From Mytilus trossulus (taxonomy: Eukaryota), in assembly GCF_036588685.1 (NCBI RefSeq), contig NC_086382.1, positions 75,206,001 through 75,270,000 of the forward strand: a stretch of 64,000 nt of DNA, read 5' to 3'. The notes under the pieces are model-generated. The model searched no databases and was not told the DNA's origin. It worked only from the letters and a program-made list of their open reading frames with translations. Positions 15,199 to 63,984 of the stretch are shown here, piece by piece; position 1 is the stretch's first letter; each line of letters opens with the position of its first letter. A program made the position numbers and the translations under genes.

Positions 15199-15203
15199 TA
15201 ATT

Positions 15204-15222
15204 TGGTGGCTAGCGGTGGGAT
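15204..15222 (+). promoter_or_regulatory. Primer-binding site, tRNA-Leu type
   Basis: TGGTGGCtAGCGGTGGGAT just after the LTR. It is complementary to the animal tRNA-Leu 3' end (TGGTGGCAGCGGTGGGAT) with one extra base. Confidence 0.75.
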
Positions 15223-15596
15223 CCAAATTGTTCATTTTTAAATCCATAGTGAAAGATTATGTCAAAATTTGATCATCTTATAAACTTATATCCAAACTGT
15301 CTTGTGAGAATTTACTGTTCACTTTTGCACAGATCATATTTGTTCAAACTGTTCACTTTTGCACAGATCAAAATTGTCCTGTTAACGTTTTAAATTTCCC
15401 ATGGTTAAATTACGATTATTATTTACATTAGGGATAAATGATCGATAGTGGTACAGGCAATATTTTGATTGACATTTATTACGTTGTACATTTATGACAT
15501 TGTGTTGATATTGTAATATTGTGAATGCATAGTTATATCGCAAATTAAAGTACAAAAATGTCTTTTGACGACGAATTGACAAAATAAATTGAAGGT

Positions 15597-16600: not shown

Positions 16601-16646
16601 GAACAAATATAATGGAAATAAGGGGGATGGGTCTGTCAAAACAGTA

Positions 16647-20377: not shown

Positions 20378-20520
20378 ATTTTGTTGGATGGTTATATTGT
20401 TGTTGAATAGTTTTTGTACATTTATCTGAAGTATGTGTATATAGCATTTCTATGTTTTATCCGTTTGAAACATGATAATTTTAGACATGCGGGACGCATG
20501 TGTTTTTGAGGCGTGGGTTA

Positions 20521-21818: not shown

Positions 21819-21854
21819 TTTTTTTCCATGTAGAAGTTGTAGTGACTGCATCGG
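21819..21854 (+). CDS. Ig-superfamily gene 36-nt micro-exon (signal peptide C-part, VFFHVEVVVTAS)
   Basis: tgtttcag| acceptor and G|gtaagt donor; phase 1-1 and open. Confidence 0.6.
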
Positions 21855-23246: not shown

Positions 23247-23297
23247 AAATGAATAGTAGGGATACATATGGAAAGCATGCATATATATATATATATA

Positions 23298-27752: not shown

Positions 27753-30484
27753 TGTTGGAAATCACGCATAGAATAGAACGTTTACGTTACGTGGCATTAT
27801 TCAATGTATATCCAACGTTGTGTACTTATGACGTTAATTTGTACTTTAGTCATCAATACAAATTCATACAGTTTAGACGTCTTTGTTATTGCATGCAGTT
27901 TTTAGTAAAATGATATTGGTACCGTGACCAGATGAAGATGACTACAAAGCTTAAATCTATTCGAGCGGGACACAGAAGCGCAGTTTCTAGGATGTTAAGA
28001 AGATTTGAGAAGAGAAGTGTAAAAGAAGAAAAACCGGAAGAGGACGAGCTGGAAACAATTTTGGATACATTAAAGGAAAAGCAAGATATTCTAAAGGATT
28101 TGGATAAGAACATTTTGGATAGTGTACAAGAGGAGGATATAGAGCAAGAGATACTTGACACAGATGAGTATAAATTTAATTTAGAGACGAAAATACGCAA
28201 AATTCGTAAACTTATTCACGTTAAAACATCAAATTTAAATGCAGCCGCTAGAAGTTTTTCGCCGCACAATGAGACACTACAACTCATTCAAAATGTTGAC
28301 CCCGTATATAACAGAAGAGATGACTCACAAAATACTGGCCACAATTTCACGTCTTTACGTTTAAATTCTAGCGTCAATAGCAGCAATTTTCATAAACTAC
28401 CGAAATTGAATTTACCTACGTTTGATGGAAACGTACTTGAATGGCAATCCTTTTGGGATTCTTTTGATTCCGCAATTCACACCAACAACACACTAACCGA
28501 AGTTCAAAAGTTCAACTACCTAAAATCTTTACTAGAAGGAGAAGCGACATATACCATAGACAGATTTGCTCTTACGCACACAAAGTACAACAAAGCTATT
28601 GAACTCATACATGAAAGATTCGGACAAAAGCATAAGATAATTCAATCGTACATGCAAGCACTACTAGACATACCCGCACCAAAGAATACGCCTTCACAAC
28701 TTAGAAGTTACTATGACAGAACAGAGAAATACATAAGAGAGCTTGCATCTCTTGGACAAGCCCAAGACTCGTACGGCTCGTTATTAGTACCAGTCATACT
28801 CAACAAAATGCCCAGTGAAATACGCAAAAACTTAAAACACGTGAGCAGGGTTCAACAGATTGGTATGTTGGTGATCTTAGGAGATCAATCTTTAAGGAGC
28901 TGGCCATTTTAGAGTCTGGTACAGAAACATTTGAAAGTCCTAGTACTACAGCTACCTTCTACACAAACACAAAATCTCGCGAAAACTGGCCAAAAACCAA
29001 TTCACCACAGAAATCTTATCAAATTAGCTGCGCATACTGCAAGGAACCCCACTTTTCGTCAGAATGTACTAAATATAAAGACCAGAATGACCGCATGAAA
29101 ATTGTTAAAGAAGATAGATTGTGCTTCAATTGCTTAGGGCGACACCGCGTAGTAGATTGCAAATCTATATCAAACTGCAAGAAATCTATATCAAACTGCA
29201 AGAAATATGATAGACGTCAACACACAAGCCTATGCAACAACGACCATGATAAAGAAACTACAAGTACAAGTAGTACAAGTACAATACACAAACACAACGC
29301 GGAGGAATCTGAGACTTCTGTTTTATATTCATCTTTAAATTGTGATCGCCCAAATGTTTTATTAAAGACAGCAATAGCACCAATAAGCTACAAAGACCAA
29401 ACGATTGATGCAAAGATCCTTTTTGACGAAGGCGCCACAAGGTCATTTATTACAAGACATTTAGCGGAGAAATTGGAGTTAAAAACCACAGGAAGTAAAG
29501 CAATCACGCTATCTAGATTTGGAGACGATAATGAGAGCAACTCTTTTGAACAGCTAAACAAAGCTACAGTGAAGATAAAAACTATATATGGCCAAGAAAT
29601 ACCAGTCGATGGTTTGATTGTACCTAAAATCGCCGCACCATTTAAGACAAACATTGAAACTGCAAAACAGTTATCATGTTTGCAAAACGTAAGCTTAGTT
29701 CACGCCGTTACGGTGGATACATCATTTGAAATTTGACTGCTTGTTGGAGCTGAACAATACTGGGATATTTTCGAGGATGATATCATTAGGGGCGAGGGAC
29801 CAACAGCAGTAAAGTCCAACTAGGAAACTTACTCTCGGGACACCTCAAAAGAACCAGTTCAAACAACGAAACACACTTTAGCACTACCAATGTAGGAGAA
29901 ACGGAAGAGACACACACTACCGAGGATACAACAGAGAGGAATACTATAAACATTGAACAAATTTCTACAATTATGGACACTTCAAGGACAAAACATAGAA
30001 CCAAGTAAATGAAACAGACAAACCAGCTTTAATGTGGACAAGAGACAGTAACAAAAACAAACGCTTTTACGAGGATTAACAAGGAATGGGAAAATCAAAA
30101 TCTCAGTTCAAAAAGCTTAACTTATAGCAGGAATTGGATTACAGGGAGAAACTTACAAGAAAAAAAAAGTATAATCTGACACTTCACTATAACAAACTGT
30201 GGTTAAAAGTTTTAATTTTAATGATGGACTTTAAAGTTTATTACATTTTATTATTCTAACGGAAAAACTTTAATTATTTTACAAGTTTTAAATTTTCACT
30301 TTTCGTGGGCCGGAGAATGTTGGAAATCACGCACAGAGGAGAACGTTAACGTAACGCGGCATTGTTGTATATCCAACGTTGTGTACTTATGACGCTATCT
30401 TGTACTTTAGTCATCAATACAAATTCATACAGTTTATAAGTCTTTGTTATTACATGCAGTTTTTAGTAAAACAACTTTACAATA
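27753..30484 (+). mobile_element. Short BEL/Pao LTR retrotransposon (gag-protease only)
   Basis: LTRs 27753-~27915 and 30318-30484 start TGTTGGAAATCACGCA. 5-bp TSD ACTAG (27748-27752, 30485-30489). tRNA-His-like PBS TGGTACCGTGACCAG (27917-27931). Purine tract 30307-30317. Confidence 0.9.
27932..29840 (+). pseudogene. gag: BEL/Pao gag plus aspartic protease, frameshifted
   Basis: KLPKLNLPTFDGNVLEWQSFWDSF (DUF1759-like); zinc knuckles CAYCKEPHFSSEC and CFNCLGRHRVVDC; protease ILFDEGATRSFI. No RT, RNase H or integrase follows. Confidence 0.85.
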
Positions 30485-31143: not shown

Positions 31144-31266
31144 TTTAATTTCATGTTGTTTCTAAATATGTATTTTAATTTATGTTTTGTCTATTATCCA
31201 TTTTGTTTGTAATTCATATGCCTATAAGGGCCCTTTGATTAGGAAAAAAACATATTTGATTTTGAT

Positions 31267-32065
31267 TATAAAGACTAATACCGGTCTATTATCTACATCC
31301 ACCACCATACCCGTGGTATATAAAGAGGAATACCGGTCTATAATCTACATCCACCACCATACCCGTGGTTTATAAAGACTAATACCGGTCTATTATCTAC
31401 ATCTTCCACCATACCCGTGGTATATAAAGACTAATACCGGTCTATAATCTAAATCCACCCACATACCCGTGGTTTATAAAGACTAATACCGGTCTATAAT
31501 CTACATCCACCGCCATACCCGTGGTTTATAAAGACTAATACCGGTCTATAATCTAAATCCACCCACATACCCGTGGTTTATAAAGACTAATACCGGTCTA
31601 TAATCTACATCCACCACCATACCCGTGGTTTATAAAGACTAATACCGGTCTATTATCTACATCAACCACCATACCCGTGGTTTATAAAGACTAATACCGG
31701 TCTATAATCTAAATCCACCACCATACCCGTGGTTTATAAAGACTAATACCGGTCTATAATCTACAGCCGCCACCATACCCGTGGTATATAAAGAATTATT
31801 CCGGTCTATAATCTACATCCACCACCATACCCGTGGTATATAAAGGATAATACCGGTCTATAATCTACATCTACCACCATACCCGTGGTTTATGAAGACT
31901 AATACCGGTCTATAATCTACATCCACCACCATAACCGTGGTTTATAAAGACTTATTCCGGTCTATAATCTACATCCACCACCATACCCGTAATATGTAAA
32001 GACTAATACCGGTATATAATCTACATCCACCACGTGCCATACCCGTGGATATAAAGACTAATACC
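31267..32065. repeat. 52-bp satellite, middle block
   Basis: Same unit, about 15 copies. A further ~2 units lie at 30486-30603. Confidence 0.95.
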
Positions 32066-39357: not shown

Positions 39358-42300
39358 AACAAACATGATTTACTTCTGCAAGCCTTTGTTCATGAAATGA
39401 ATTTTCAATCTTATCGATCAGAGAAATCAACTTTTTTTCATCATTCTGGATTGTCAACCTCTCAAATTAATTATATCTTGCACAATGCCACAAATGCTTT
39501 TCTTTAGGACTATAAGATCCATGACCAATGTCATTTCAATACATCAAGCCACATTGCCGTGAGTGCAAAAATGAATGTCAAATCAAAACCACTGAATAAA
39601 GCAATCAAATCAGGCTATATCAGTAAATTCAAACTGCAGTGGAAAGATATAGATAATGAAACATATCATAATCATATCAGTAATGAACTCTCTCAGCATA
39701 ATATTGAAAATCACTCAATAGAAGAAATCATGAACTTTCTATGCAACTGTCTCAAAAAAGCTGCTACAGCTGCTGTACCATCAAAGATCATCAAATTAAA
39801 AGGTCCACATTTCAAAGCATCTCCAACCACTCTTATGCTGCTCAAAACTAGTAAAGAAAAATATCAACTCTGGAAATCTCATGGCAAGAAAAATGATCAT
39901 CTTAAAACAGACAAAATTCTGGCTCAACGAAATCTTCGCAAACAATTCCGAAAGGAACAGTATATGTATAGAACCCAATTCTACAATGAACTAATAGACA
40001 ATCCTAGCAATGATATGTTTCATTATCTCATTCGTCGCAACAGAGGCTCCAAAAATAAAGATGCGATCTGTATAATAGAAAATGGTGAGCACCACTACTC
40101 TGCAAAGGACCAAACAAATAGCTTCTCTAGATACTTTGAGGACTTAGCTGTTCCGAAAGACAACGGTTATGATCCAGAATTTTTAGATCTCTGCAATATC
40201 CGGCATAACATATTTGATGAACTCTGCAAACAAAACAGCGACGAACCACAATTTAGTGCTCAAAATATCTGTGATGCAATCAAACAGCTACATTCTGGCA
40301 AGGCAACAGATGAACTAGGTCTTGCTGCTGAGCATTTTAAAAACTCACCAACAACAGTTACTCATTTTCTTACTAACTGTTTCAATAACATTTTCATCAA
40401 TCATCATATACCTGATATCTTTAAATCTGGTATCGTAACACATGTGCTCAAAAAAGGGAAAAATCCATTATTAATGGACAACTATAGAGGAATTGCCGTT
40501 ACACCTGTCATCTCAAAACTCTTCGAATGTACCATACTACCTCGCTTAACCTTGAATTTTGATCAGTCATCTCTACAGTTCGGCTTCACAAAAGGGTTGT
40601 CGATGGTTATGGCCAGTCGCATTATCACTGAAGCTAGGGCAGAAGTAAAATTAGTCACAATGGAACCTTTATTTCTTATTACTGTGGACAGCCAAAAGGC
40701 CTTCGACGTCGCAGATCACATCATATTATTATATGTGTTATATGACCATACTCAGAATCATTCTCTCTGGTCAATAGTGAAAATGTTTTACTCAGGGCTA
40801 GTTTCAAGAGTCAAATGGAAGAGAAATGTTAGTAACAGCTTTAATATTCATCAGGGAGTCCGACAAGGAGGCATTCTTTCACCTTTTCTATATAAAGTCT
40901 ATGTAAACAATCTGCTTGAGGATCTTAAATCGCACAGTCTTGGTCTTAAAATTGGCACAAATTATGTTGGCTGCCCAACTTGTGCGGACGACATATCCTT
41001 CTTGAGCAATAATCATCAGGAATTACAATGCATGCTCTCTGTTGCAACTCATCATGCCAGACAGTCAAGAGTAACAATAAATCCTACAAAAACTAAAGCT
41101 GTCATCCTCAACAAACCGAAAAAGATAAGCAAGTCCGATTTAAACTGGACCCTAGGCAACACCCTTGTTTATCCATCGGAAGACACAACACATCTTGGCT
41201 TAATAAGAGCAGAATTGAAGGAAAACAATCTAAATATTGATGCACGCATCAGCATTGCCAGACGTACTCTTTACTCTCTAATGAATACTGGTTTACATGG
41301 AACAAATGGACTAAACCCACAGACATCTTACAAGATATATCAGAGCTATGTTATTCCCCGATTGCTATATGGAATGGAAATACTCCCTCTTAACCAATGC
41401 CAACTTGGTATTTTGGCACGCTTTCACACAAAAACATTGCGAAATATTCACTCTCTACCTACACGAACAGCCACTGGATTAGTATTTATGCTGTTGGGAG
41501 CGCTAACAATTGAGGCAGAAATACATAAAAGGCAACTATCATTTCTATACAGTGTTCTCTCATGTAACAATTCAACAATCCAAGGTTTAGTTGACAGACA
41601 AGTCATTATGAATATTGATAACAATCTCAGCTTCTTCTGTAAGGTCACAGGTGTACTAACTGTATACGATCTGCCAAGTATATCTACACTTAGTCAAAAT
41701 TTACCGTCAAAATTAAAATGGAAAGCAACAGTTAAAATAGCAATTCAGGATTATTGGACTAAAACTCTCATTAAAGAAATAGAAACAAAGTCCTCATTAA
41801 CATACTTGGACAAAACCATGTTAAGAATTGGGCATACACATCCGGTTTGGACAAGTCTTTCCTCAACTGTATCAGATGTTAAAAAGGGAGCGATAAAAGT
41901 TCGTCTATTAACTGGGACTTATATTCTTGAATCTCACAGATCTAAATTTAGTGGTGGCAAGGAATCGGCATTATGTAAATGCTGTGGAACATCAGATGAA
42001 GATATAATTCATTTCCTTCTATTGTGTCCGGCTCTACACAAGCAGAGAAAAGAAACATTTAGCAAACTCAAGTCTTATGTGATCTCAGTCATTGGCACGA
42101 AATATTGGTCTGAGAATTTTAAAGGACATTTGGATCTGATAAAACTTATTGTTGACAGCTCTTTTCTGCTGCCAATGCTTAGAAATTGGACTGAACTGGA
42201 CAAAATTCATCGATTGGCTACGGACATGTGTTATAGACTCCATGCTCAGCGTATATGGAAATTACAAGGAAAATAATATCTCTATACTCAAAGATAAATA

Positions 42301-42496: not shown

Positions 42497-42822
42497 TGAT
42501 ATTAAGATGATAGCACATTATTGACTGTTGTACCCCTATTTTTGACATTTTTACTCTTCGAGTATGTTTGTTTTGTTCATTCATCGTTGACAATGTAATG
42601 GAATATGATGCGACTGTCATAAAAGTGAGAGGTTTAGCTAGCTATAAAACCAGGTTCAATCCACCATTTTCTACATTAGAAAATGCTTGTACGAAGTCAG
42701 GAATATGACAGTTGTTATCCATTCGTTTTATGTGTTTGGACTTTTGATTTTGCCTTTTGATTTTGCCTTTTGATTTTTGATTTTCCTTTTTGAAAGTTTA
42801 GTATTTTTGTGTTTTTACTTTT
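42497..42822 (+). mobile_element. Interspersed repeat, probably the 3' remainder of the Penelope-like element interrupted at 32786
   Basis: A second copy lies at 10550-10770. The satellite resumes in register right after it. Confidence 0.55.
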
Positions 42823-43592
42823 TCTATAATCTACATCCACCACCATACCAGTGGCTTATAAAGACTAATACCGGTCTATAATCTACATCCACCACCATAC
42901 CCGTGGCTTATAAAGACTAATACCGGTCTATAATCTACGTCCACCACCAAACCCGTGGTTTAGAAATACTAATACCGGTCTATTATCTACATCCACCACC
43001 ATACCCGTGGATTATTAAGTTTAATACCGGTCTATAATCTACGTCCGTCATCATACCCGTGGCTTATAAAGACTAATACCGGTCTATAATCTACATCCAC
43101 CACCATACCCGTGGTTTATAAAGACTAATACCGGTATATAATCTACATCCACCACCATACCCTTGGTTTATAAAGACTAATACCGGTCTATTATCTACAT
43201 CCACCACCATACCCGTGGCTTATAATGACTACTACCGGTCTATAATCTACGTCCACCACCATACCCGTGGTTTATAAAGACTAATACCGGTCTATAATCT
43301 ACATCCACCACCATATCCATGGCTTATAAAGACTAATACCGGTATATAATCTACATCCACCACCATGCCCGTGGTATTTAAGGACTAATACCGGTCTATT
43401 ATCTACATCCACCACCATACCCGTTGTTTATTAAGACTAATACCGGTCTATTATCTACATCCACCACCATACCCGTGGTATATAAAGACTAATACCGGTC
43501 TATAATCTACATCCATCACCATACCCGTGGTGTATAAAGACAAATACCGGCCTTTTATCTACATCCACCACCATACCCATGGTATATAAAGA
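42823..43592. repeat. 52-bp satellite, last block
   Basis: Same unit, about 15 copies. Confidence 0.95.
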
Positions 43593-44217
43593 CATCGGGT
43601 TGGTTGTGAAATTTCTTTTACACGAACGATTTATAACTAGTAGCAGCACTTTTTGAAAAATATGAAATGTGGCCTTTCTATCAATACCAGTATGTAGTGG
43701 GTTGGTATAGCTCTTGCACCTGCATTTTTTAATTACTTTAATGTGTAGATGTACATTGTAATACAACTATTGATTTTCCCCTTCAAGTCTTTGTTAAATT
43801 TGCACTTTTCAAAAAATTGTGCAGAATTGTCTTTGTTTCAAAAGTAAGAAGTACTTGACATGAGTAAAGTTTTATCCTGTCCAGTTCTATAGAAAAATGT
43901 TCTCATAACATTTCATTGCATATAAGAAAAAAAACATCATTGGAAGTAAACCAATCAAAATTCTCCCCTTATTCTATCTGTGCACAAGGTTTAATCACCA
44001 TGTAACCTCAAGATTACAAAATTTTCTATAGAAATCACAAATAAAAATACTGGTGTTTTGAAATACCCAAGACATATGATTATGATACAGAAATAGTTTT
44101 ACTGCAATAAAATGTAGGATTAATTACCTACAACGGTAAAATGCAAGGGAATATATTTTTCGAATTACTTTTGTAAACAACAGGATGTGACATACTATGA
44201 TTTGGTGGTATTACACC

Positions 44218-45359: not shown

Positions 45360-45806
45360 ATGTACCCGGTTTGATGAGAAACATAAGTGTAAAATAAAAT
45401 ACATGTGTCGCTTTTATAAGGATGAATATATGAACCACTTTTAACTTCTTTCATACTGACGATAGTATATAATCCTAACAATGTCGTAGTCATTTATAAT
45501 TAAAGTATCTCATAATAGAACCATTACAATGCTATAAAACATACACACAGTAGCTTTAAGTGTGCCATAAACGTCGGAAATTGTCCCCCAAAGATAGAAA
45601 CACAATGACTTTAATCGTATCATTTGTGCACCTGAATGAATTCAGTGAAGGCATGTTGTTGTAATAAATTGAAATGTTACATCGGCAAAGATTATTTCTT
45701 TTGTATGTTTGGAACTAAATAACAAATTATTACTTGTGAGAAATGTCGTAGATTATAGCTCTCCGTTTTTTATATAAGGTTTGGTTTTTACATATTTTGG
45801 CCACGA

Positions 45807-45850
45807 GCATTACTGAAGAGACATGAATTGTCGAAATGCGCATCTGGTGC
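45807..45850 (+). ncRNA. Minimal type I hammerhead ribozyme
   Basis: GCAUUA-CUGAAGA-GACA-ugaau-UGUC-GAAA-U-GCGC-A-UC^UGGUGC; predicted cleavage after 45844. Confidence 0.85.
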
Positions 45851-46082
45851 AGAAAAATTGTTACAGTTAATGTTATTACTACCACGGGTCGATGCCTCTG
45901 GTGGACTTTTAAATTTGCTGTTACAAAATGTTACACATTATTATAAATTAAATAATGTATCTCCCTCATGCAAAGCTCTGATTCCTTTCACAGATTTGGC
46001 TATCCTTTTTGAACCTTTTGGATTATAGCTCTTCATCATTTGTATAAGCTTTGGTTTTTACATCTTTTGGCCACGAGCTCGA

Positions 46083-46126
46083 GCATCACTGAAGAGACAT
46101 GGATTGTCGAAATGCGCATCTGGTGC
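46083..46126 (+). ncRNA. Minimal type I hammerhead ribozyme
   Basis: GCAUCA-CUGAAGA-GACA-uggau-UGUC-GAAA-U-GCGC-A-UC^UGGUGC; predicted cleavage after 46120. Confidence 0.88.
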
Positions 46127-47457
46127 AGAAAAATTGTTACAGTTAATGTTATTATAAGGATTGTTTTACAGTATGCGGTACAGGCTTTACTAATTGTCGA
46201 AAGCCGTACGGTGACTTATAGTTGTTAATTTCTGTGTCATTTTGGTTTCTCGTGGAGAGTTGTCTTAATTGCAATCATACTACATCTTCTTTTTAAAATA
46301 TAAATGTACTGTTTTCGATTTTAAATGGACGACTATTTATCTTTTAATTTTATACTTTAGGAAAAGAGCTGCATAACATTGTTGAGCTATCGTATATGTA
46401 GTATGTATTCGTATTTATAATGAAATACAAAACAAAACGTGTATGATAAACGGATAAACAAAATATCGAGAAATTAAGGATGAATAAATGCAAGTACAAG
46501 AAGAAACTCACCTTTTTATCAATACATTTAAATAATTTAATGAATAAACACTTGTTTTTAAAACGGTTTGTTTCTATTTACATAGATATAGGAAGATGTG
46601 GTGTGAGTGCCAATGATACAACTCTCCATCCAAATAACAATTTGTAAGAGTAAACCATTATAAGTCAAGCTAGGGCCTTCATCACGGATCCTTGGCTCAC
46701 ACTGAACAACAAGCTATAAAGGGCCCCAAAATTACTAGTGCAAAACCATTCAAACGGGTCAACCAACGGTCTTATATTTCCAATATGGAATTTACGTTCG
46801 TTTTTCTACCGAGAATAGCAAAACCTCATGAAATATATCGTTGGAGTTTATAAACTAAATTTAATCCTCACCTGTGCCATGATTGGCCATTTCCGGTTTT
46901 TTTTCTAAAAAAAAAGAAGCGTGGTTGGTTACATGTTATGAATTTACTTACAATTCGGGATTTTTCTTCTTCAAGTAAACGGAATCAGAAAAAAAATCAC
47001 TATTCTATGTCGAATACCTTAAACTTGGCAAAGGATATAAAAGTTTTGCAGTAAAGTACGGTTTCATTTTTCAAGTACAACGTTATTTTAAAGAGTCCAT
47101 TGAGTAAAAGGTAAGGCAGGATAAGAAAATTGGGGGATTCAATGAAAAAAATAATTGTGAATTGATTTTTTTTTATCCTACATTGAACTTTTGATGTCGT
47201 CCTTTGATCTAGAGAAGACATTTAAATTGAATATTTAGATATTAAAAATGTTAAGATTTTTAACTTTAAACTTTACTACCAATTGCATAAAATTATAAAA
47301 CCAATGAATTTCAAATGCACAATTTATAAAAGCTAGAATTGTTATTGGAATCATTTATGCGAATTCACAATGGTAGCTTGAAACGACCTTGACCAGCTAC
47401 GTGAATATTAATCAGTCCATTCAACGTTATAGTACGTGTGTTCTATTTTCTATTTTC

Positions 47458-47883: not shown

Positions 47884-48180
47884 ATGTTCCAAATGTTACT
47901 ATACCAAATGCGGAATATAGCATATGGAGTGGTTCGGCTATGACTCTAGAATGCATTATTGATTCTATTCCAAATCACACCGATGTATACTGGCAAAAAG
48001 AATCTCATGGTACAGTTATGAATATAACATCGTCTAGTACTAATGTATATGGTGCAACGGTCACTAAACCATCGTTGACCATCACCCACGTAACTACAGA
48101 TGACGAAGGGCAGTATATATGCTTGGCTGTTAATATTGTTGGAACTGGAAAAAGCAACCCCACTTCTGTGAAAGTATTAG
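47884..48180 (+). CDS. Ig-superfamily gene, Ig domain 1 exon
   Basis: ttacag| and G|gtaag; 297 nt, phase 1-1. LEC...VYW...PSLTI...DEGQYIC. Confidence 0.9.
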
Positions 48181-51086
48181 GTAAGATGTTTTATATTTTT
48201 TACAGTGACGAAGCATATTGAACATGTTGAAGCAATTTATTTAATGTTTATGTACCTATATTATGTTAACAGTGATAATACAAAAGTGATAATACAAAAG
48301 TGATAATACAAAATACAACTAAAAGACAACATAGCACAAAACAGATAATAAGACAAGTAAGACTAAGGCACTAGTTTTTGAATTTCTGGCGAAAGATTTT
48401 TTTTTTAGTAAAGACTATTAGATATAACTCTGAATCGATTTATTATTTTTGAACAACGATATGCGACTGTTGCCGTTTATTTTGTCTAAAATATTTTGTT
48501 GATTGTAGAGCTATGGTTATACCAGTACAATTACAATTATCTAATTGATACAAAATTGTGAAATTGATAAATGTTCACCACAATAACATCCCTGTAAAAA
48601 TGAAACACACTAGTTATGTTAATGAAGGTATTTGAATATATGTGGTTAAGAAATCCTCAACTTATTAATACAAATTTCCTGCAATGCAAAGATGAAAATA
48701 ATAATCATAAAAAAAGAAATGTAAAAGATATCCCTTTAGACACAGGCAAGCAGCACAAGTGACAAGGACGAAAGTCATGATCAGAAGAATGCACATATCA
48801 GTCGAAATTCAACTGATGGATGCTGAACTCCTTATGTTTATACTCGTATGAAGCAGAGCTCGCATGAAATCAAAGAAAACATAGACATAATGACGACAAC
48901 CTGTCTCTACGGAAAACACAATACTACAGCAGATAATCATCCCCTCCCCCCATTTACAATTTTACTTCTGATACTTTTTTTCTCTGTAAGTTATGGTTAT
49001 TACACCAAGTCTTTGGCATTGACGATTGTCAACCACACAAGTGCTTTAAAGGCACCTTTTTTCAAAGTGAAATGTAAACCTCCCGATTGCTCGTTCACAT
49101 TTTCACCACACAATAATATTTCATCTTTGTCATGTTATGAGAGGCGATCTAGGTAACCGAGAAAAAACGAAGAGAATTATTAAACAAATGACCACAATAT
49201 AGAATTAATCAGCTCATCAACTATTGACTGATTGATGCAGTCGAGGACTATGCTAATTAAAACACGAACAAATAGAACCAAAACATGACAGTTTGACTGA
49301 ATGGATCAAAAATGTTCGATCAGTCACAAAGAAGCGCATTTAAAAATGTCTTATGATATGAGCAAAATTGTTTTCAACCAATTACTAGTATTACTCGGAG
49401 AATGTTTATCCTTTGCACGAGAAATATGTCTTTGTTCCAGCAGATAAATGATTCAACGATATTGTCTTCGTAAAAAGCCATGTGTTCAATGTATAGCAAA
49501 CGAATTTGGAAAACACAACACATCTGGTCATCTCACATAGCTTTTAACATCATTTACAATGGATGACACTTTACAAAATCAAACATGTGTCCTTATTTCT
49601 TTTGATGTCAACATAAAAAAGTAAATCTACCGTCCTTATACTGGCTACAAATACTTTATGAAACTCCATTTGAAGACTATTGCAAAGATAAAATATTTGT
49701 GCCTGAATTTATTTTCTGAAGTGCTGACTACTATTGCAGAAAAAAACATGGCCATCAACATTATTGTGATGAAATGTTTCAACGAGTGCGGTCAATCTAA
49801 TGGGGATTCTGAAAAAACTTCTTAAGATCTTCCGCTTCACCTTACAATCTCTACAATTGTCAACAGCATTGATACTTTTGATTTTACTTCGCGTTACAAT
49901 ACTATTCCCCATGATCTATTAAAACATAGGCTCCACCATCTCATCAAACAGTGCGTGCTCCTTCTGTTAATATAGTAATCGTGAATACAAATCTCGTTTT
50001 TTGTATATAATTATTCTTATCACACATTTTTCACATATATGCACCTTTATGTGTGGCCAGTAATAGCCGGAAGTCAAAGTTGGTTACTAGCCCTCGGGGT
50101 CAGTATCGATATAAAACCTCGAAATCCATATCTAGTCCTCGAATATGGCTTCCGGTAATCTGTTTTTTGCTTTGTCCACCCGTCCACAGTGGGTGTTGTC
50201 AGCGGTGGGCAACATTTCTAGCCTGTCCACTCTGCCCACCCATAGGAGCGGGCATGCACTTTCGTTTGTTTAATCAACAGACTTGCAAGTACAAACAATC
50301 GAAAAAAGCTGAAAAGCAACTATAATCAATATTTTTACAAAATAAGAGATTAAAGCTAGAGTGGGCACGGGTGGGCTTTCCACGGTGGCCGATGGAAAAA
50401 GCAAAATCCACCCGAGCAGTTGTGTATGCAGTACGTTGTTTGGTAAGATGTTTATCTTTACATAACATAATTCACACTACAATTAACAATGTTTTGATTT
50501 ACATGTTTTACATGATATGGTTTAATATTAACTTGATATATATTTGTTCTTTCTTTCTATTATTTCAATATGTAAGATTAAAACATTAGTTGATGTATCT
50601 GTGGGTTGACATAAAGCATGTATTTCATTAAATGACAAAAACCTTACAACTTTATCATGTTTATCATTTGGCAGTATTGGAATTAGGCAAGAGCCAACAA
50701 TATGAATCTATAAATAAAGTCACACAATTATCTGATTTAAAAAAAATGCCCAAATACATTACTTATGTCAAACATTTACAACGAAACAATGCTTAATCAA
50801 ATGTAACCGGAACTCTTTGGTTCAATAAATCAAAGCAAAGCAAAGAGGACGTTCTTAAAACAAAAGAGAATTGAAAAACAGTATACCTGAGGGCACCCCT
50901 AGATAGAAAACTTCCAAATCATTTCGAAAGAAAGAATGTATTTTTGATATTGATTACAAAATATAAAAAAGCACCTCACCTGAAAATAACCGATGAATTT
51001 ACATGTACAATAAGTTATATTTAGATTTTAAGGGGTAATGTTCAGATGAAATTATATAAACAAATATATGTTTTGTTCATTGACAG

Positions 51087-51449
51087 GCGAGTTAGTAGTC
51101 AACTGTAGCATAACAAACTACACAGAGGTATATGGTTCACAGGTAACACTTCGGTGCAGTGTCACATACGAAACGAAGTTTGGACCTGTACGTGTATATT
51201 GGAATAAATATAACAGCATTGGCGAAGGCAGCATGGGCATTTATGTTCATCCTGCTTTGTATGAATTTGAACATTTTACCATGAACAGACTGTCTGTTGC
51301 AATTCCTGAAAAGAACGGGTTTGTTATGGATCACCATTATTTGACAATACAACGACTTACATTTAAAGATGATGCTTGGTACTATTGTATGGCGCACACT
51401 AATTTCTCGGTGGGAAGTAGCCCACCAATTGACCTAACAATCATTGCAA
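51087..51449 (+). CDS. Ig domain 2 exon (long, V-set-like)
   Basis: tgacag| and A|gtaagt; 363 nt. LRC...VYW...LTI...DDAWYYC. Confidence 0.85.
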
Positions 51450-52956
51450 GTAAGTAATTATTGACATTGCTCCAAGCGTATATAACTAGTTCACATATGA
51501 GGAATAAATCAATTCACAGATCGATAACAAAAGTCGAGGTTTCTTACTTGTCTTGAAACGATGACCACCATCGATAAATCTGACTTTCATTTTGGGGTCA
51601 ATTAAAATCACATACTATTAGATTCTCTGGTTTTAAAGTCTTTATTTGGCTTACAAATGGATGGTTTTAAAGATTCTAGTAAACATTAATCAAGAAAAGT
51701 AGTTCTGATGCATCAAATTTGTAAAGTTTTATTTTCATTATGTTTTGCTAATTAGATAATGATGAAGTGGTCTTCTAACTCCCCTGTAGAATATCATGAA
51801 CTTATAAACAAAAGAATATTAAACAGAAGATGTAATATGTTTGATAATTATCCGACCTTTCCCAACACCCTACGAAAACATAGATTTCTACATAATTAAA
51901 GATGGAAAAAATGTATAGATTTACAAAATTGATCACTTGCACTAATACAAAATAATACCAATTTCAGTGGACAAACAATTCAAAACTGTGTTTTTGTTTC
52001 TTTGTTAGTTGTTTAATCATTTTTCTTTTGATATTATGGTATTGGATTTGAAGAGCGAACCCGTTGCTTAAGATTTCGAATTGTTTGTCAGCTGAAAGTT
52101 ACAAAAATGCAAACAAACAAAAATACAACACGTTAAATTCATCTGATAAACACACTTAATCTACGCTTCTGACAATTTCTAAATATTAAAAATAGGACAT
52201 ATTCGTTACATTTTATTAGTCAGCGCACCAGTCTGTTTTGTCTCAATATCAGATCAAGCATAACGTTATCACTAAGATATGTAAACACTGTACGAAACAA
52301 AACAGAGTATGTTACTGCTGAGCATTAGCAAAGTTATATTGCAACATAAAATACTCGGCATTTTGTTTCGATATCGAGATAACTACTTTCCAATTAATAA
52401 TTTCACCAAGATATATTGATTGAATAAATATATATATATATGAGTGTAAAATGAAAATAAAAATTGTTCTTTTCCTTTCTTGTCGTCTTTGGTATGCATT
52501 TTGCATCATAGCATGATTATAACATGAGTACAAATAAAAACAAAATGATGCTACATGAATGTGCGATTTGTACTTTTTGGAATATCGACAGTCTGTTGAA
52601 AAATCAAATCACAAAAATAATCATAAACTTTTTATTGGGGACATAATCGTCCATCATATGGTGTTTTTGTCGTTATTAAGAAAAGAATTTCGAATGCTTG
52701 GAGAGCGTTATATCATGTGATCATTGGTAGTTTACCCTATAACATTGTTGTGCAAAATCCAACATTTCGAGATTAAACAACCTCAATAACTAAAGATTAA
52801 GAATAGTAGCGCCAAATACTTAATAAAAGAATTAGTAAGCACAATTCACAGATTGCTGAAAATATAGTGTGTATTACATAAGATGATGTCGATTTTTTTT
52901 AAACTTAGTTTTATGAATTGTAGTCATAAAATTTACAAGTATCTTCTGTTTTGATA

Positions 52957-53407
52957 CAGCCCTTGAATGGTGTAAACTTCCCCAAAAAACGTGTATGGTG
53001 TAATGGTGTATGGCATATGATGCTATGGTGTAAGGTGTATGGTGCTATGGTGTATGGTGTAAGGGGAATGGTGTAATGGTGTTTGATGAATGGTGTGATT
53101 GTGTAATGTGCGATATGGAATGGTGTGAATGATGAATATATACGACACTTCATTGGTTTAAAACGAAGTTCTTTTTATTTATTTTTTTCGTATTGTGAAC
53201 ATAAACAATTATATTAATCATAATATTTGAAATTTAATTGCATTATTGGTAATTTCGGATCGTGTAGATAGTATGGGGAATGGTGTATAGTGTAATGTGT
53301 CAGGTGTATGAAGCAAAGGTGTAACGTGTATGGTGTAATGCATGGTACAATGTGTATGGTGTTATGGTGTATTGTGTTAGTGGGAAGTTTTCACCATCCA
53401 AGGACTG
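52957..53407. mobile_element. Tc1/mariner-type MITE with internal ATGGTGTA-like repeats
   Basis: TA on both sides (52955-52956, 53408-53409). 26-bp TIR CAGCCCTTGAATGGTGTAAACTTCCC vs reverse complement CAGTCCTTGGATGGTGAAAACTTCCC. Confidence 0.8.
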
Positions 53408-53572
53408 TAGTTAGTTAAGGTCAAGGGTGTCACACAGAAAGAATAAGAATCTAATGCAGTCATTTCCTCAAAATTGTCAAATCAATGCATCAGTAATTGC
53501 TACGATCTCGATACAGAATCCTATCCTAAAAACTAAAATGATTTATATAATATACGTAAGTTTCCATTATAG

Positions 53573-53884
53573 ATCCAAAATATCCTGTTGTAAACATTGA
53601 ATCAAACCGGTATGTGGTGACATATGGCAGTTCACTCACCATCAACTGTTCAGTTCGTTCATCTGAACAGGATCCCGTAAATGAGATATATTGGAAGTAC
53701 AATAATAAGGGAATCATAACAAAGATTTCCGAAAAGACGGACGGGATATCAGGAAGTTCCATTAGAACGCCATCACTCACCATTTTGAAAATGACATCGT
53801 CTGAATCTGGAATCTACACCTGTTATGCTAGAAATGATATTGGAACAGGAGAAAGTCGACCAATAAATGTAATTGTTACTGGAG
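53573..53884 (+). CDS. Ig domain 3 exon
   Basis: ttatag| and G|gtaaaa; 312 nt. INC...IYW...PSLTI...ESGIYTC. Confidence 0.9.
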
Positions 53885-54828
53885 GTAAAACAAGGGTATA
53901 CTTATTTGGCGCTTAACGTTATGACCTAGCATGTTATTTTTGTACTTTTCTGTTGTTTACTATCGTTTCGTTTTGTTGCTGTTCTATGTACAGTTTATAG
54001 GTTTGTTATGTACTCCTATAAGTTCAGTTGTGGTTTTTTGAATATTGTTTTTCTTTATGTTTTCAATATCAAAACATTCATTCATTTATTTTAACACTAT
54101 CATATCTCATTCGGATGTTAAAATCGTACCAGTTGTCATACATTTTAGTAAGGATTGGTCCGACTGGGGAAATATTGACGCCCAGGTCTTGTTTGTATTA
54201 TCCTCAATTTCAAGTGCACCAGGATATATGAGATGTACTTAATGACGTAAATATGGGTTATTTAGTGATAGGACATCATCAATATATATAAAAGTGAAAT
54301 GAAGAATTTTGCAAGGTGCTTTTAAGAAGATTCTATATAAATCCTGCTTCATACGATTACAATGAAGAAATAAGGGATGCACAATGAGACACAATTAAAC
54401 CGAAATTTTGAATGAATTATCAATCCTACAAACTCAACAAATATATATTGTCTTTTCAAAAAGTCAGATATTTTGATAATATCATCTCCAGTGTTTTTTT
54501 CTGATTTAATCAATCTGATTTCTTTTCATAAACACGAATGATTATACCTCCTCCCCCCCCCCCCCCCAAAAAAGTCGACCAATTGAACATGGGGAAATAG
54601 CAGTGTATTGTGTATTGAAATCAAATATTAGTATTTATTGTATCTATTTATTTATCACATTGGTGATAATGTTTATTTTTAAGAAAAACGTACCACACTC
54701 TTCAAATAATAGAGAAAAACTGATTTAAAAGAAAAAAAGAGTTCATTTTGTTGCATGCGTTGCTCTCTTTAATTTCTGCCCATGTGTTTATTTGGTTTAA
54801 CATGTAATATTCCACAATTGAATTGCAG

Positions 54829-55121
54829 ATGTACCAACTGTTTATGTTAAAGGTATTCAATTAAGTACGGGGAAAACGTAACAATTGCCTGCAATATAAC
54901 TTCTAACCCACCTATCACAAATGTTTACTGGGAGAGAGAATTTAATGGTACGAAAAATGTGATTAATAGTTGGACAGCTGGCGTGCAAGGAGTTTCATTA
55001 GATGCACCATCGCTGACTATAGTAAAAACCACTACATCAAATAACGGATCTTACATATGTATAGCTTCCAATGATGTCGGAATAGGATACAGTGAAACTA
55101 CAAATTTAGAAGTCATCGGTG
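54829..55121 (+). pseudogene. Ig domain 4 exon carrying a frameshift (293 nt)
   Basis: ttgcag| and G|gtaagg. DVPTVYVK then a frame change to YSIKYGENVTIAC...VYW...PSLTI...GSYIC. Absent from the ORF track. Confidence 0.85.
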
Positions 55122-55318
55122 GTAAGGTTTTATAAAAAAATAATTATGATATGTTGAGATGTCTGATTTTACAATAACAATATTTTTTTACTTATGGTTA
55201 TTCAATGTTCTGTCTATAATTTTGGCCGTACAAAGTATTCAGAAATTATAAATGTGCTAAATTATTGAAAAACATTTATGAACTGTCAACCGTCTAGACA
55301 CTTTTCTCTGGTTTTCAG

Positions 55319-55618
55319 AGCTGCCATATATTAGTATTACAACGGATTTCCTACAAATGAAGTATGGTGAAAAAGTACACATATCATGTGTTGTGAATGC
55401 AATACCACCTGCAACCGAAATTTACTGGGAGAAAGAATTAAATGGTATCAAATATGTAATAAATACTGGGACTACTGGAACTGAAGGAATAACTGTTACA
55501 AATCCATCACTTATATTAATCCACGCAACAGATTCGGATGCAGGACTTTACAAATGCTTTGCAGTCAATGAGTTTGGAATGGGCTATAGTTCAGCAATTA
55601 AACTCAATGTTATAGGAG
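55319..55618 (+). CDS. Ig domain 5 exon
   Basis: tttcag| and G|gtaata; 300 nt. ISC...IYW...PSLIL...DAGLYKC. Confidence 0.9.
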
Positions 55619-56019
55619 GTAATATTTTTTTAAACTTGTATCAACAAGACTTCTGCATTTAACGTCAAGTTTATAGGTTTGATTTATTTTAACCAGTACT
55701 GCAATGTAATTTATTAGTTATGCATGAAACAATGCATGTAAGATAATGTTTCAACAGTAGTCATTTCAGTCTTCCATAATAATAGACGAACTTTGAAATA
55801 TGTCCTGACATACCATCAGAAAATCAATCTAGTAAAGCTAATGGTTAGTTTTACCGGCTTTGGATATTTGCCATAGAGAAAAAGATGTTCATGTTTATAG
55901 CACATGAGCAAAATGTATCGGTATTTTTTTTTTAATAAAGATTAAGGACTTATTCAATTTTGATTAAATGTTATACACACTGAAAACGAACATCATTGTA
56001 ATACTCTTCATTGTCGCAG

Positions 56020-56313
56020 GTATTCCTGATGTTGATGTTCCATCTATGACGCACCTAACAGGCATTGGTTACACAATAACTCTCACTTGTTCTATCAAAA
56101 ATGCCTTTCCTGCCATTTCAAGGGTGTACTGGGAGAGATATATACATGGCTCAATAACAAGACTTTCATCTGCTTCGATTGGAATCATGGGAGTCACCGT
56201 TGACAATCCATCGCTTATCATTCCAATGGCAATGGAATCGATGACTGGTGAATATACATGTTTGGCTGTTAACTCTGTCGGTACCGGTAGAAGCTTCCCA
56301 GCAAAATTGACAG
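56020..56313 (+). CDS. Ig domain 6 exon
   Basis: tcgcag| and G|gtggga; 294 nt. LTC...VYW...PSLII...GEYTC. Confidence 0.88.
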
Positions 56314-57338
56314 GTGGGACTATTATATGTCTTTTAATTGCCAATATTCTCTCTTTCGTGGCGTCTTTGTCACAACATGCTTAAGATACGCATATATAGG
56401 AAAACCGTCAGGGTGATATGTATTGATGTGCATTGTTTGTGATTGACTGTACAATATTTGAATCAAAGACCAGGTTGTAAAATTCTGAACAATTTTTATA
56501 TGGTGTGTAACACAACAAGTAGCGTTAAACCAACATTTTTTTCTGAAAATGTCCTGTAACGAATATGAACTAAATTGTTTCCGACCAATCAGGTGTTATT
56601 TTAGCAAATAGAAGAAATGTTTAGACTTTTTGATTACCACAGAGCATTAATATGGTTTTTTTTTAGTTTTTCTCAGAAAAATGTACTGAGGAGAGGTCAA
56701 ATGAGATTTTAACAATTTTAAAAACCAAAATTGAAAATATACAGTTAAGGCGAACCTCCTATAGAAAATGGTATAAGTGAGTTCTGCTTGATTTGACTCA
56801 TGAACATGACTATTTGTTAAGTCATATAACTAGAAGAATCTATGTCTAAAACAATAAAAGCAAATAAGGTGACAATATTTATAAAAGTTAAAATTTCAAA
56901 ATTTTATTTAAAAAGGGACACAGAACATGAACAGCTACACAAACACAACGTTAGGGAATCACATTTACTCTAAACGGAGTGAAACCGGTACAACTACAGT
57001 TTACGTATGTACTTTTATGCATGCATATATCCATATGTATAAACTGTAATTTTCTTTTACTCTTTAACATATCACATGTATCAGTAAACAGCTCATCACT
57101 AGATACATATTGCATTGGTCCCCATGTTAATAAGATGTACGTTTTCTGATATTATGAGATTAAATATATGACATTTGTATCTTTTTATAACATAATGCCA
57201 GATTGGTCTCAGTAAACGTTTTCCACGAAGAACCAATTGGTATTATTTGAAGAGCCTATTCCTTTCTTTATCTAAATTAGTATCTGATATGATTTACCAA
57301 ATTTGATAATTTTTCTAAACATTTTCATCTCCTTTTAG

Positions 57339-57398
57339 TTAAAGCAGGAGTTACACCAAACACTAACTCTGATGATTCGGATGATGACACAGACTACA
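57339..57398 (+). CDS. Acidic stalk exon (VKAGVTPNTNSDDSDDDTDY)
   Basis: Polypyrimidine-ttag| and A|gtatgt; 60 nt, phase 1-1, open. Confidence 0.75.
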
Positions 57399-57805
57399 GT
57401 ATGTATTTTATCAGAAGATATTATTTGTATACTGAGTGTTTGTGTTAAATTTATCTATTTATTCATAAATGTCATCATTTATAAGTTTGAAACACTCAGT
57501 CCTGTTTCTTCAATTTGCTGAGTTCATATCATATGTCGAATTAATAAAAATAAATGTGCACGGTCAAAAAAATATTTTTTGTTTCAATGTTGTCCTCTTG
57601 TTTCGTATTGTCTATATCTTTAGAATGTAATGTTGAGTAAAAGGTGTACACTTTACCATCATCAGTCTATTCATTTTTATTTCATTCTTGACAATGTCAT
57701 CTATACGTCTATTACTAGCATATACATTTTTATAACTTTTTTATAATGTTCAATTTGAAACCGATAGTTGATAGTTTTATATCGATGTAATTATTTCTTT
57801 CACAG

Positions 57806-57907
57806 CGGATACAGTAGTTAATGGAATAATAGGTGCGGTGAGTGCTGTAGCAGCGGTTGGATCACTAGTCATTGCTTACTGGGCTTACAAGCGCTCTAAG
57901 AAGCAGG
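57806..57907 (+). CDS. Transmembrane exon
   Basis: tcacag| and G|gtcagt; 102 nt. VVNGIIGAVSAVAAVGSLVIAYWAY followed by the basic KRSKK. Confidence 0.85.
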
Positions 57908-60779: not shown

Positions 60780-61636
60780 TTAAATTTATATTAGGATCCA
60801 TTTTGTTACATCTTGTGATTAATTTTATTTGGCAATCGCCAATGGCAGTCAGCAGGGTTAAAGAAAATCAGTTGTTCGACCTGTTAGTCAAATGCGTTTT
60901 GTTTAAATATACTTTTTCACTCTTTTGGTCTTTTGGAAAATGTTGTTTGTGCTGTTTTTAGACCCTTCTACAACGAAATTTGTTTGACATGCACACGTAT
61001 AAAAACTGCGGTTTTTATCCAACGCAGTCATAGGTTTGAACGTAGTTTTCAATTTAGACTCGTTTATATTTTTTGTTTGGGCATGTATCATATTTTCCCT
61101 CCGGTTTATATGATCCGTTCATCCTATATATTGACTTTTAAAATTCAAGAGTTAATCTAAAAATGAGGGCACTTTCTCTAAAAATGAGGGTACTTTTTAT
61201 ATGGCCTTCCAAATACCGTTTCGATCCCTAACATCACTGAAGAGACATTTATTGTCGAAATCCGGATATGGTGTACTAAAGAAATATTGACACCGAATGT
61301 TTGTGGCACAACATCCTGTCCACAAGTTAACAATTTTTTTTTCTGTGACGTATTAAATTTATATTAGGATCCATTTTGTTACATCTTGTGATCAATTTTA
61401 TTTGGCAATCGCCAATGGCAGTCAGCAGGGTTAAAGAACATCAGTTGTTCGACCTGTTAGTCAAATGCGTTTTGTTTAAATATACTTTTTCACTCTTTTG
61501 GTCTTTTGGAAAATGTTTTTTTGTGCTGTTTTTATACCCTTCTACAACGAAATTTGTTTGACATGCACACGTATAAAAACTGCGGTTTTTATCCAACGCA
61601 GTCAAAGGTTTGAACGTAGTTTTCAATTTAGACTCG
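60780..61636 (+). mobile_element. Retrozyme-like tandem element, ~573-bp unit x1.5, flanked by (TA)n on both sides
   Basis: Period 573 (60781 vs 61354). (TA)n at 60759-60779 and from 61637. Same family as 23298-24253. Confidence 0.85.
61231..61274 (+). ncRNA. Minimal type I hammerhead ribozyme
   Basis: ACAUCA-CUGAAGA-GACA-uuuau-UGUC-GAAA-U-CCGG-A-UA^UGGUGU; predicted cleavage after 61268. Confidence 0.88.
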
Positions 61637-61689
61637 TATATATATATTTATATATATTGATCTTAATTTCATCCATCTTTATTATGTTC

Positions 61690-63984
61690 TGACGAGCGGA
61701 ACTTCAGTCAAAGATGTTTGAGACTGTGCAAGATCCAATTTTAACTTTTAATACAGTTCTAACGTCAATTGCTGACAGAACTATTCCTAAGACCTCGGCA
61801 AATCCAAAACATCCCAGTAAACCATGGTTTGATGACGCATGTGATCAAGCCATAGGTGACCGTAAAAAATCTGAAAACGGTTCAATCAACAACCAACGAC
61901 GGAAAACTTGAGTAATTTCCGTATTTTTCGCGCTAAGGCACGGCGGACTTGTAGGCAAGCCCGACGAACATCCTGGAAAAAAATTGTCTCGGGTATTACA
62001 TCTCGCACTCCGATGACAAAAGTTTGGAATATGGTAAATAAAATAAAAGGTAAAAATTCTAAAGACACTGTAAAACATTTGAAAGACGGCAATAATTTAT
62101 TAACATCTGAAAAGGATATTGCCAACAAACTTGGTGAAACTTTTGCAAAGTCTTCTTCTTGTAACAACTACAGGGAAGACTTTAAAAAAGTTAAAAAAAA
62201 AACAAAAAGAAAAAATTAAATTAAACTTTAAATAAAAAAATGGTGAAAATTATAATAAACTATTTTCTCTTGAAGAACTTAAAACATCTCTGTCAAAAGC
62301 CCATGATACAGCTTGTGGGCCTGATAATATTCACTACCAACTCTTAAAAAACTTGCCAGATTCCTCGCTAGAAGCTCTCTTGCAGCTCATGAATAACATC
62401 TGGGAATCTGGTGATTTACCATCAATCTGGAAGCTTGCAACCGTCGTGCCTATTCCAAAACCAAGTAAAGATCATACGGATCCTATTAATTATCGACCAA
62501 TTGCTCTTACCAGTTGTGTCTGTAAAACACTCGAACGGATGGTCAATGATCGCCTTGTTTGGTTCATGGAATCCAATGGGCTATTAGCCAATATCCAGTG
62601 TGGATTCCGACAGGGTCGCAGTACTCTTGATCATCTTGTTCGATTCGAATCATTTGTCCGTAATGGTTTTGCGAAAAATGAGCATGTGGTGTCGGTCTTT
62701 TTCGACCTTGAGAAGGCCTATGATACTGCATGGAAATATGGTATTTTAAAAGATCTATTTGATATGGGGTTGAAAGGCAATATGCCTAATTTTATTTCTA
62801 ATTTTCTCTCTAACAGACAATTTAATGTTAGAGTTAATTCAACCATGTCTGATCTTTATGATCTTTATAAGCTTGGACTTCAATATGCTGTCAAACTAAA
62901 AGCGCATTCAGATAATCCTGCCTACAGCTGTGTTTTTAATCCGATTTATGAAGATATTTTTGCAAAACATGAAAATAAAATTCCTCCGTTAGGTTTACGT
63001 TTAAAACCACATTTAGCTTCTTTTGATTTAAAATCTGTTGCTCAAGTTCAAACTTGCAAATTTCCTCCATGGGAACTTCCCAAACCAAAAATGATATTTG
63101 ATCTCCGTGAACACAATAAAAATAAAACAAATCCTCTTTTAATTCAGCAACACTATGCTGAAATTAAAGCCGATTATCTCGATTTTTCAACTGTCTATAC
63201 TGATGGATCAAAAGATGGTGATAGAGTTGCATCTGCTGCTGTCTTCAGGGACAGAGCTGCAACCCTCCGTTTGCCATCTGATGCATCCATCTTTACTGCT
63301 GAAGCAGAAGCAATAATTTTGGCTTTGAAATTTATTGCTTCTTCAGATAAATCCAAATTTATTATATGTTCGGATTCACTTTCATGCTTACAAGCTATAC
63401 GAAATACTAAAATTAAAAACCCAACAATCCTGAAAATTTTATATGTAATGAGGAATTTAAAAATTCTTCTGAAAGAAATAATATTTCTATGGGTTCCGAG
63501 TCATGTTGGAATCCTTCGAAACACAGCTGTAGACCTTGAGGCAAAGAATGCCCTTGGTGACCCTCTATCTAACTGTGATATACCATATACTGATTTTAAA
63601 TCTAATATTAGAGAATATGTTTTTAATATATTGAAAAATAAATGGAGTAAAAAAGACGATAATAAATTGCATGAAATTAAACCTAATTTAGGCAAACCTT
63701 TTGATAATATTATGTGCAGAAAAGATCAGTGTGTTATTACTAGATGTCGTATTGGTCATACTAGAATAACACACGAGTATCTTTTAAAAAATGAAGATGA
63801 ACCACAATGTGTTCCTTGCAACTGCAAGTATACTATTAAACATGTTTTAATTAATTGTATTGACTTTGCTGATATTCGTAAGAAGCATTTCAAGGTCAAT
63901 AATATGTATGATTTATTTAATAATGTTCCATTTACAAATATTGTTGCTTTTTTAAAAGAAATTGGAATTTATTATGAAATATAA
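61690..63984 (+). pseudogene. 5'-truncated I/Nimb-like LINE ORF2 (partial RT, RNase H, zinc finger) with RT core deleted
   Basis: PWF, YRPIALTS, QCGFR and DLEKAYD are present, but QG and YxDD are missing. RNase H motifs YTDGSK, AEAEAI, SDSLS, WVPSHVG. C-terminal CVPC...HVLINC. Confidence 0.9.

Follow-up and report, generated by a model that had tools for sequence, protein, structure and literature searches.

A deleted retrozyme copy with two hammerhead ribozymes in a likely intron of a mussel Ig-domain gene

Can two self-cleaving ribozymes on the sense strand of a host gene cut its pre-mRNA, and how did they get there? The question is raised by a pair of hammerhead motifs in Mytilus trossulus, found in a 64,000-nt stretch (contig NC_086382.1 of assembly GCF_036588685.1, forward-strand positions 75,206,001 to 75,270,000) that we call the window and whose coordinates we use throughout. 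A first-pass annotation, made from the sequence alone, took the pair for a dimer that could excise a 276-nt RNA from an intron and affect its splicing. We now propose, with good confidence, that the pair sits in a copy of a 350-nt retrozyme, deleted and 5'-truncated, which is oriented in sense within what is likely an intron of an Ig-domain gene. When the host gene is transcribed, the two hammerheads would pair and cleave a minor share of the transcripts; a 276-nt circle would likely be released, and host mRNA would be little affected. The anatomy of the copy, its copy number, its fixed 3' end, its unique deletion and the spliced host gene on the same strand are established here.

In the window sequence, CTGAAGA cores start at 45813 and 46089 of the plus strand, and each hammerhead contains one GAAATGCGCATC, at 45833 and 46109. 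These positions set the predicted cuts after 45844 and 46120, 276 nt apart, which confirms both the intact cores and the predicted cleavage sites of the first-pass annotation. Hammerhead 1 (45807-45850, plus strand) and hammerhead 2 (46083-46126, plus strand) are of type I; in each of them stem I has 6 bp, stem II 4 bp (GACA/UGUC) and stem III 2 bp. In both of them loop III, GCGC, lies within the 8-nt palindrome AUGCGCAU: the palindrome previously noticed in stem/loop III is present, only longer than the 6 nt (UGCGCA) assigned to it. Likewise, the proposed GCAUCA strand of stem I holds for hammerhead 2 (GCAUCA/UGGUGC); hammerhead 1 has GCAUUA/UGGUGC instead, with two neighbouring U-G pairs, a change found in 2 of 79 sampled cores. 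The repeats that surround the ribozymes (45751-45878 and 46021-46154) are 89% identical.

Both ribozymes have CUGAAGA, GAAA and an AUC cut site, in agreement with the CUGANGA plus GAAA core and NUH cut site of canonical metazoan type I hammerheads. Their geometry is also the one given for this class in the definition of PMC4209133 (helix I 6 bp, helix II 4 bp, helix III 1-2 bp with a palindromic loop), and under that definition the label of 'minimal' hammerheads has to be dropped. A search of the window against Rfam at gathering thresholds gave 0 matches. The fold is backed by covariation, as had been argued: in an alignment of 13 cores, chosen by hand from three families, pairing holds in 97% of the cells and 4 of 12 pairs have changes on both sides, against 13-44% pairing in the same alignment when partners are slid by 1-3 columns. 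As the three families are related, these double changes represent few independent events. Covariation with a 575-nt family, on which the argument had been built, amounts to one compensatory pair in stem I only; the bulk comes from a third family, of 354 nt.

The pair belongs to a 404-nt stretch (45751-46154, plus strand) that matches a dispersed and tandem repeat family, below called family A. It holds about 1.5 units of 350 nt and is truncated at its 5' end, while its 3' end at 46154 is typical of the family and lies 34 nt past the second cut. The exact family core has 5,088 matches in the genome and the reversed pattern 0, so the matches are not due to chance. On contig C1, over the first 40 loci of the list, adjacent cores are spaced by 344-352 nt in 33 of 36 cases and by twice that distance in the other 3. 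Compared with the 350-nt unit, the window unit is short of 76, 3 and 1 nt and has gained a 6-nt duplication (46074-46079, plus strand) directly before hammerhead 2; 250 of 270 aligned bases are identical (92.6%, gaps excluded). The 276-nt length results from the 76-nt deletion, which is unique to this copy: its junction (45907/45908) and the 6-nt duplication each match the genome once. We rejected a 276-nt subfamily on account of this single junction match and of three other shortened copies, which miss the same region and break elsewhere.

Tandem repeats in the 150-450 bp range, a type I hammerhead in each, many copies, no protein or LTR and a GC content below 50% are among the marks of non-LTR retrozymes, and the family has all of these, its head-to-tail units being AT-rich and free of long ORFs. 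Target-site duplications, which in such retrozymes exceed 4 bp when present, are not seen at the window copy or at most of 43 copies, with long ones at L002 and L061. The window element is best read as a deleted, 5'-truncated and otherwise ordinary copy of the mussel 350-nt non-LTR retrozyme, a kind already known; one of thousands of copies, its locus has no support for being special. Contigs of runs X7 and X15 cover the repeat, but they can neither be assigned to one locus among the family copies nor serve as evidence of circles.

Two sister families populate the same genome: family B, with 17,626 cores and a 354-nt unit, and family C, with 3,041 cores and a 573-nt unit, the latter being the 575-nt family of the first-pass annotation. 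Two copies of family C are found in the window, at 23281-24253 (minus strand, antisense in the same intron, core at 23697) and at 60780-61653 (plus strand). Its units are longer than those published for mussels, often have an AUA cut site and end in (TA)n at +374; possibly, the family has a different mobiliser.

The host gene body extends from 47884 to 57907 on the plus strand. Pfam identifies six Ig exons: Ig1 (47884-48180), Ig2 (51087-51449), Ig3 (53573-53884), Ig4 (54829-55121), Ig5 (55319-55618) and Ig6 (56020-56313). They are followed by a stalk exon (57339-57398) and a hydrophobic, likely transmembrane exon (57806-57907) without a Pfam match. Ig2 is single-copy in the genome and shares a contig with Ig3 in run X7; the nearest named protein relatives are all from Mytilus. 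Four GT..AG joints are seen in contigs of X7 and X15 (the latter being RNA by our guess), which shows splicing of the gene in some animals, whatever the insert status of their alleles. The annotated strand is thereby borne out, the hammerheads being oriented like a spliced gene for a six-Ig membrane protein. Ig4, with 293 nt, is out of frame in this assembly, hence the allele may be broken, may skip Ig4 or may reflect an assembly error. Among the matches listed for X2 and X3, no contig or joint crosses 45751-46154 as an empty site would.

The second cut falls 1764 nt before the Ig1 exon, matching the reported distance of about 1.76 kb. Ig1 starts with a phase 1 acceptor and so needs an exon upstream. 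Among 48 strong donors scanned upstream of Ig1, we found a single internal candidate, a 36-nt exon at 21819-21854 (plus strand) that is the sole one of phase 1-1 and likely ends the signal peptide, and two ATG candidates, 11380 and 11891. The likely first coding exon is 11377-11428 (plus strand; ATG at 11380, MNSDCSVLKTLLLILS, phase 1 donor), with a predicted splice to Ig1; the two exons encode a signal-peptide-like leader in phase with Ig1. In X7, the 390 nt that contig 26 holds before Ig2 fit 297+36+52+5 by length arithmetic, that is Ig1, the two proposed exons and 5 nt. Phase, donor scan and length arithmetic agree, and the exons at 11380 and 21819 are likely signal-peptide exons of this gene, as first supposed. 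Measured from 21819-21854 to Ig1, the intron has 26,029 nt, close to the 26 kb announced.

The insert is therefore likely intronic. In a different reading, it lies upstream of the gene and is not transcribed by the host; no read directly joins 21854 to Ig1 (47884), two X15 contigs start 11 nt inside Ig1, related database proteins have differing N-termini, and none of the 9 and 4 protein matches is a full-length orthologue with the same N-terminus. We consider it very improbable given the phase 1 acceptor, the fit of contig 26 and the lack of any exon candidate between insert and Ig1 in the scan of strong donors.

The window contains other repeats as well. Arrays of a 52-nt satellite lie within the long intron at 25840-27751, 31266-32065 and 42823-43593. 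An element resembling an LTR retrotransposon spans approximately 14400-21250; its gag and pol ORFs are fragmented, its ends are repeated, and its motifs suggest Gypsy. Motifs likewise suggest LINE-like reverse transcriptase ORFs at 39508-42276 and 62236-63984, and a BEL/Pao-like gag-protease remnant at 27914-29736.

With the insert in the intron, Pol II coming from exons 11380 and 21819 would transcribe it too. As soon as the second ribozyme has been synthesised, the two would adopt a double-hammerhead fold through AUGCGCAU and cut at both sites. Nearest-neighbour energies place this cis dimer 8.8 kcal/mol above the ensemble and two monomer folds 21.4 kcal/mol above it; being 12.6 kcal/mol lower, the dimer that the first-pass annotation expected from host transcripts is supported as a prediction. 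In 12 intact tandems, the dimer lies 9.3 to 12.3 and the two monomers 18.9 to 22.5 kcal/mol above the ensemble. That the window copy folds worse than intact ones was rejected, since its dimer penalty is not higher than theirs. In these energies, which leave tertiary contacts aside, both active folds stay above the predicted ensemble.

The predicted product, a monomer or circle of 276 nt (45845-46120, plus strand), would follow the published retrozyme pathway (PMC7229834), in keeping with the release first suggested. In M. galloprovincialis, retrozyme circles are abundant and RtcB ligates the RNA in vitro to about 30% (PMC7229834). The notion that such hammerheads cleave as dimers only was overstated: a cloned mussel repeat self-cleaves near 0.1/min (PMC7229834), and most invertebrate hammerheads cut as monomers (PMC7761336).

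The window copy might also be catalytically silent in its context and release nothing. In local folds, again without tertiary contacts, stem I is mostly unformed in both ribozymes, its probability being near 0, and in ribozyme 2 the 6-nt duplication is a competitor of stem II; an extra U-G pair is present in ribozyme 1. Moreover, in vitro cleavage was seen for just 1 of 9 genomic dimers from Xenopus (bioRxiv 10.64898/2026.07.22.740005), so the window copy may be inactive as well. However, both of its cores are intact, none of the 12 other tandems has a smaller dimer penalty at 37 C, and an intact family copy performs equally poorly in the same local test at longer flanks, yet the family is shown to cleave. 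Silence thus appears unlikely to us.

If the copy is active, the outcome for the host depends on its rate. We calculated with 0.1/min and an elongation of 1-3.8 kb/min, where 1 is an assumed lower bound and the cleavage rates are those of other copies at 37 C; published elongation is 3.5-4.1 kb/min (PMC10274809). At this rate, each site would have been cleaved in 5-16% of transcripts by the time the Ig1 acceptor is made, and in 42-49%, up to about half, if splicing lags by 5 min. The dimer could possibly cut much faster than 0.1/min, and at 0.8/min the share rises to 31-76% per site. By chance, a 26-kb intron should contain about 0.26 exact sense cores, clustering ignored.

The first-pass reading forms a rival in which the sense dimer cleaves so quickly that host mRNA is reduced or altered, making it a cis-regulatory or deleterious ribozyme in the intron. 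In its favour are the predicted dimer fold, the next 3' splice site only 1.76 kb away, the shares calculated for 0.8/min, CPEB3 as a precedent (PMC10274809) and the Xenopus retrozymes, which after normalizing are significantly depleted in introns in data not split by strand (bioRxiv 10.64898/2026.07.22.740005). In a zebrafish reporter, too, the natural hammerheads N79, N107 and N117 placed in an intron caused losses of up to 3-fold, compared with 20-fold for an engineered ribozyme (PMC11856399). We nonetheless find this rival quite unlikely, slightly more so than silence. The family rate is about 0.1/min (PMC7229834), and splicing survives a slow intronic hammerhead, though not a fast HDV ribozyme (summarised in PMC2995048). 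The deletion and substitutions are those of a drifting repeat, and Ig4 is out of frame in this very allele.

Our conclusion is a slow copy that would release circles occasionally. Its position is a common one, 42-44% of Xenopus retrozymes being intronic (bioRxiv 10.64898/2026.07.22.740005). Exon tethering would rescue most cut molecules, and the effect of the insert on host mRNA and splicing is probably small, considering the slow family rate, the usual sparing of splicing by slow intronic hammerheads and the Ig4 frameshift. Our literature search found no published work on effects of intronic retrozymes on their hosts. Read-through transcription as a source of retrozyme RNA has already been proposed (PMC7761336).

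The 3' end of the copy hints at how it arrived. In a position-ordered sample of 43 family copies (two of which, L069 and L070, are identical), 42 end 32-40 nt past a cut site, with scattered 5' ends; the window copy, at +34 from its second cut, is among the typical ones. For family B, the end lies at +40 to +47 in 18 of 23 cases, and for family C at +374 or +375 in 10 of 21, mostly into (TA)n. A constant 3' terminus beyond the cut would imply reverse transcription across the cut site, and thus a circular or uncleaved multimeric template. The window copy would then have arisen by target-primed reverse transcription of such an RNA, with its start 34 nt beyond the cut and probably with a Penelope-type enzyme. 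Insertions of Penelope-like elements (PLEs) often finish in a 30-40 bp tail (PMC8557442).

A putative partner is found at L193. It encodes 1056 aa with an N-terminal GIY-YIG domain at aa 183-273 and a reverse transcriptase (RT) match at E 0.033, below the cut-off. GIY-YIG before RT is the domain order of Naiad elements (Craig et al. 2021, PMC8557442), and L193 shows the other Naiad features tested as well, a tandem pLTR and no hammerhead core in the stretches scanned. One of its segments is also found in families A and B: three of four comparisons score 39-42, where shuffles reach 30-32 at most; in the fourth, the best match is a different segment. Family C has no similarity to the Naiad-type element above shuffles.

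The common segment forms a stem-loop of about 70 nt in the Naiad-type element and in families A and B (L193:1084-1175; L078:2175-2267, minus strand; L007:1390-1461; L103:1219-1290). All 16 pairs are kept and 3 are changed on both sides, in a structure drawn from these same sequences and in one comparison of two lineages. The stem-loop start occurs 57 times in the genome. Retrozymes A and B stop just before the stem-loop, where copies of the Naiad-type element often end too: of 47 distinct matches to its terminal repeat, 16 finish no more than 7 nt from the stem-loop start, 5 extend through it and 26 fall short of it. In the window copy only the 5' half of the stem-loop remains (45877-45907, plus strand), as the 76-nt deletion after 45907 took the 3' half along with a UUCG hairpin.

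These comparisons suggest that the Naiad-type element is the mobilising partner of retrozymes A and B, its enzyme presumably binding the stem-loop and starting beside it. Alternatively, the stem-loop may reflect shared ancestry without current use. We give an even chance to a wider reading: retrozymes A and B, as RNA circles produced by ribozymes, would be parasites of a Naiad Penelope that has no hammerhead, using a common stem-loop that binds the RT and sets its start, and the window copy would be a host-transcribed circle donor without the signal. Its circle, deprived of half of the putative enzyme-binding stem-loop, would likely be a dead end.

Neither the 30 GIY-YIG loci scanned nor the 18 longer stretches contained a hammerhead-bearing PLE with the retrozyme end. 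In print, a link between PLEs and retrozymes concerns Penelope pLTRs in Xenopus only (bioRxiv 10.64898/2026.07.22.740005), and according to a 2020 review animal retrozymes lack any motif indicative of their mobilising element (PMC7761336). Neither a Naiad-retrozyme link in mussels nor a fixed retrozyme 3' end turned up in our literature search; supplements, subscription papers and Repbase may contain such data.

Three further observations concern the Naiad sequences. One Naiad subfamily carries, within its terminal repeat, a 28-nt piece that matches the 3' terminus of family B and has multiplied along with the repeat (L194:554-582 and 5154-5182; also L081, L086 and L210). Fragments of the Naiad terminal repeat ending at the family terminus are present in the window at 42576-42823 (plus strand) and 10544-10766 (minus strand). 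Seven tandem stem-loop starts, 131 nt apart, make up G000:C12:27544246-27545056, possibly a hammerhead-less mini-element.

As one repeat copy, the single locus is of little importance. Its unique junction, however, makes RNA of this one intronic copy separable from that of thousands, offering a test of the published but unproven read-through model. A covarying stem-loop shared at a shared terminus would provide retrozyme mobilisation with a specific partner and a testable signal. Were the parasitism of Naiad true, the missing mobilising partner would be named together with a cis signal for Naiad reverse transcription, and the window copy would be a natural loss-of-function control.

Among known systems, the closest are the non-LTR retrozymes of M. 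galloprovincialis, with about 5,000 type I hammerheads in repeats of some 350-390 bp (Cervera and de la Peña 2020, PMC7229834). Shared with them are the type I hammerhead, non-coding tandem repeats of about 350 nt, a count near 5,000 cores, low GC, the lack of LTRs and a monomer delimited by successive cuts. The window copy differs as a 1.5-mer with a 276-nt unit, and its likeness to the published families is one of description; core patterns define three families in this genome (5,088, 17,626 and 3,041 cores) versus two in PMC7229834. As in the newt and axolotl satellite-2 retrozymes, which act as double hammerheads, the palindromic loop III permits a cis dimer of neighbouring units. Unlike the newt-type motif, where helix III has 1 bp and the dimer is required, the window motif has 2 bp, and the cloned mussel repeat cuts alone.

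The minimal hammerheads of Penelope pLTRs likewise combine a type I core, a palindromic loop and a dimer model, but have a helix II of 7-8 bp, a helix I of 4-5 bp and a reduced or absent helix III (PMC4209133), as opposed to 4, 6 and 2 bp in the window, where no PLE ORF lies beside the motif. Hammerheads of the minimal PLE type do occur in this genome, at L092:719, L205 and L206; with a longer helix II, a GCGC loop and C-terminal GIY-YIG elements nearby, they differ from the window motif. Conserved intronic ribozymes, such as the HDV-like one of CPEB3 and the intronic hammerheads of amniotes, are also self-cleaving RNAs lying in sense in an intron; they are single, conserved and domesticated, unlike the window element, a repeat copy with no sign of conservation. 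Finally, the Naiad-type element, unlike retrozymes, is autonomous, has no hammerhead core in the scanned stretches and bears an extra 24-nt hairpin in its stem-loop; still, this element (L193), akin to the Naiad Penelope-like elements of PMC8557442, shares with families A and B both that stem-loop and the position of the terminus.
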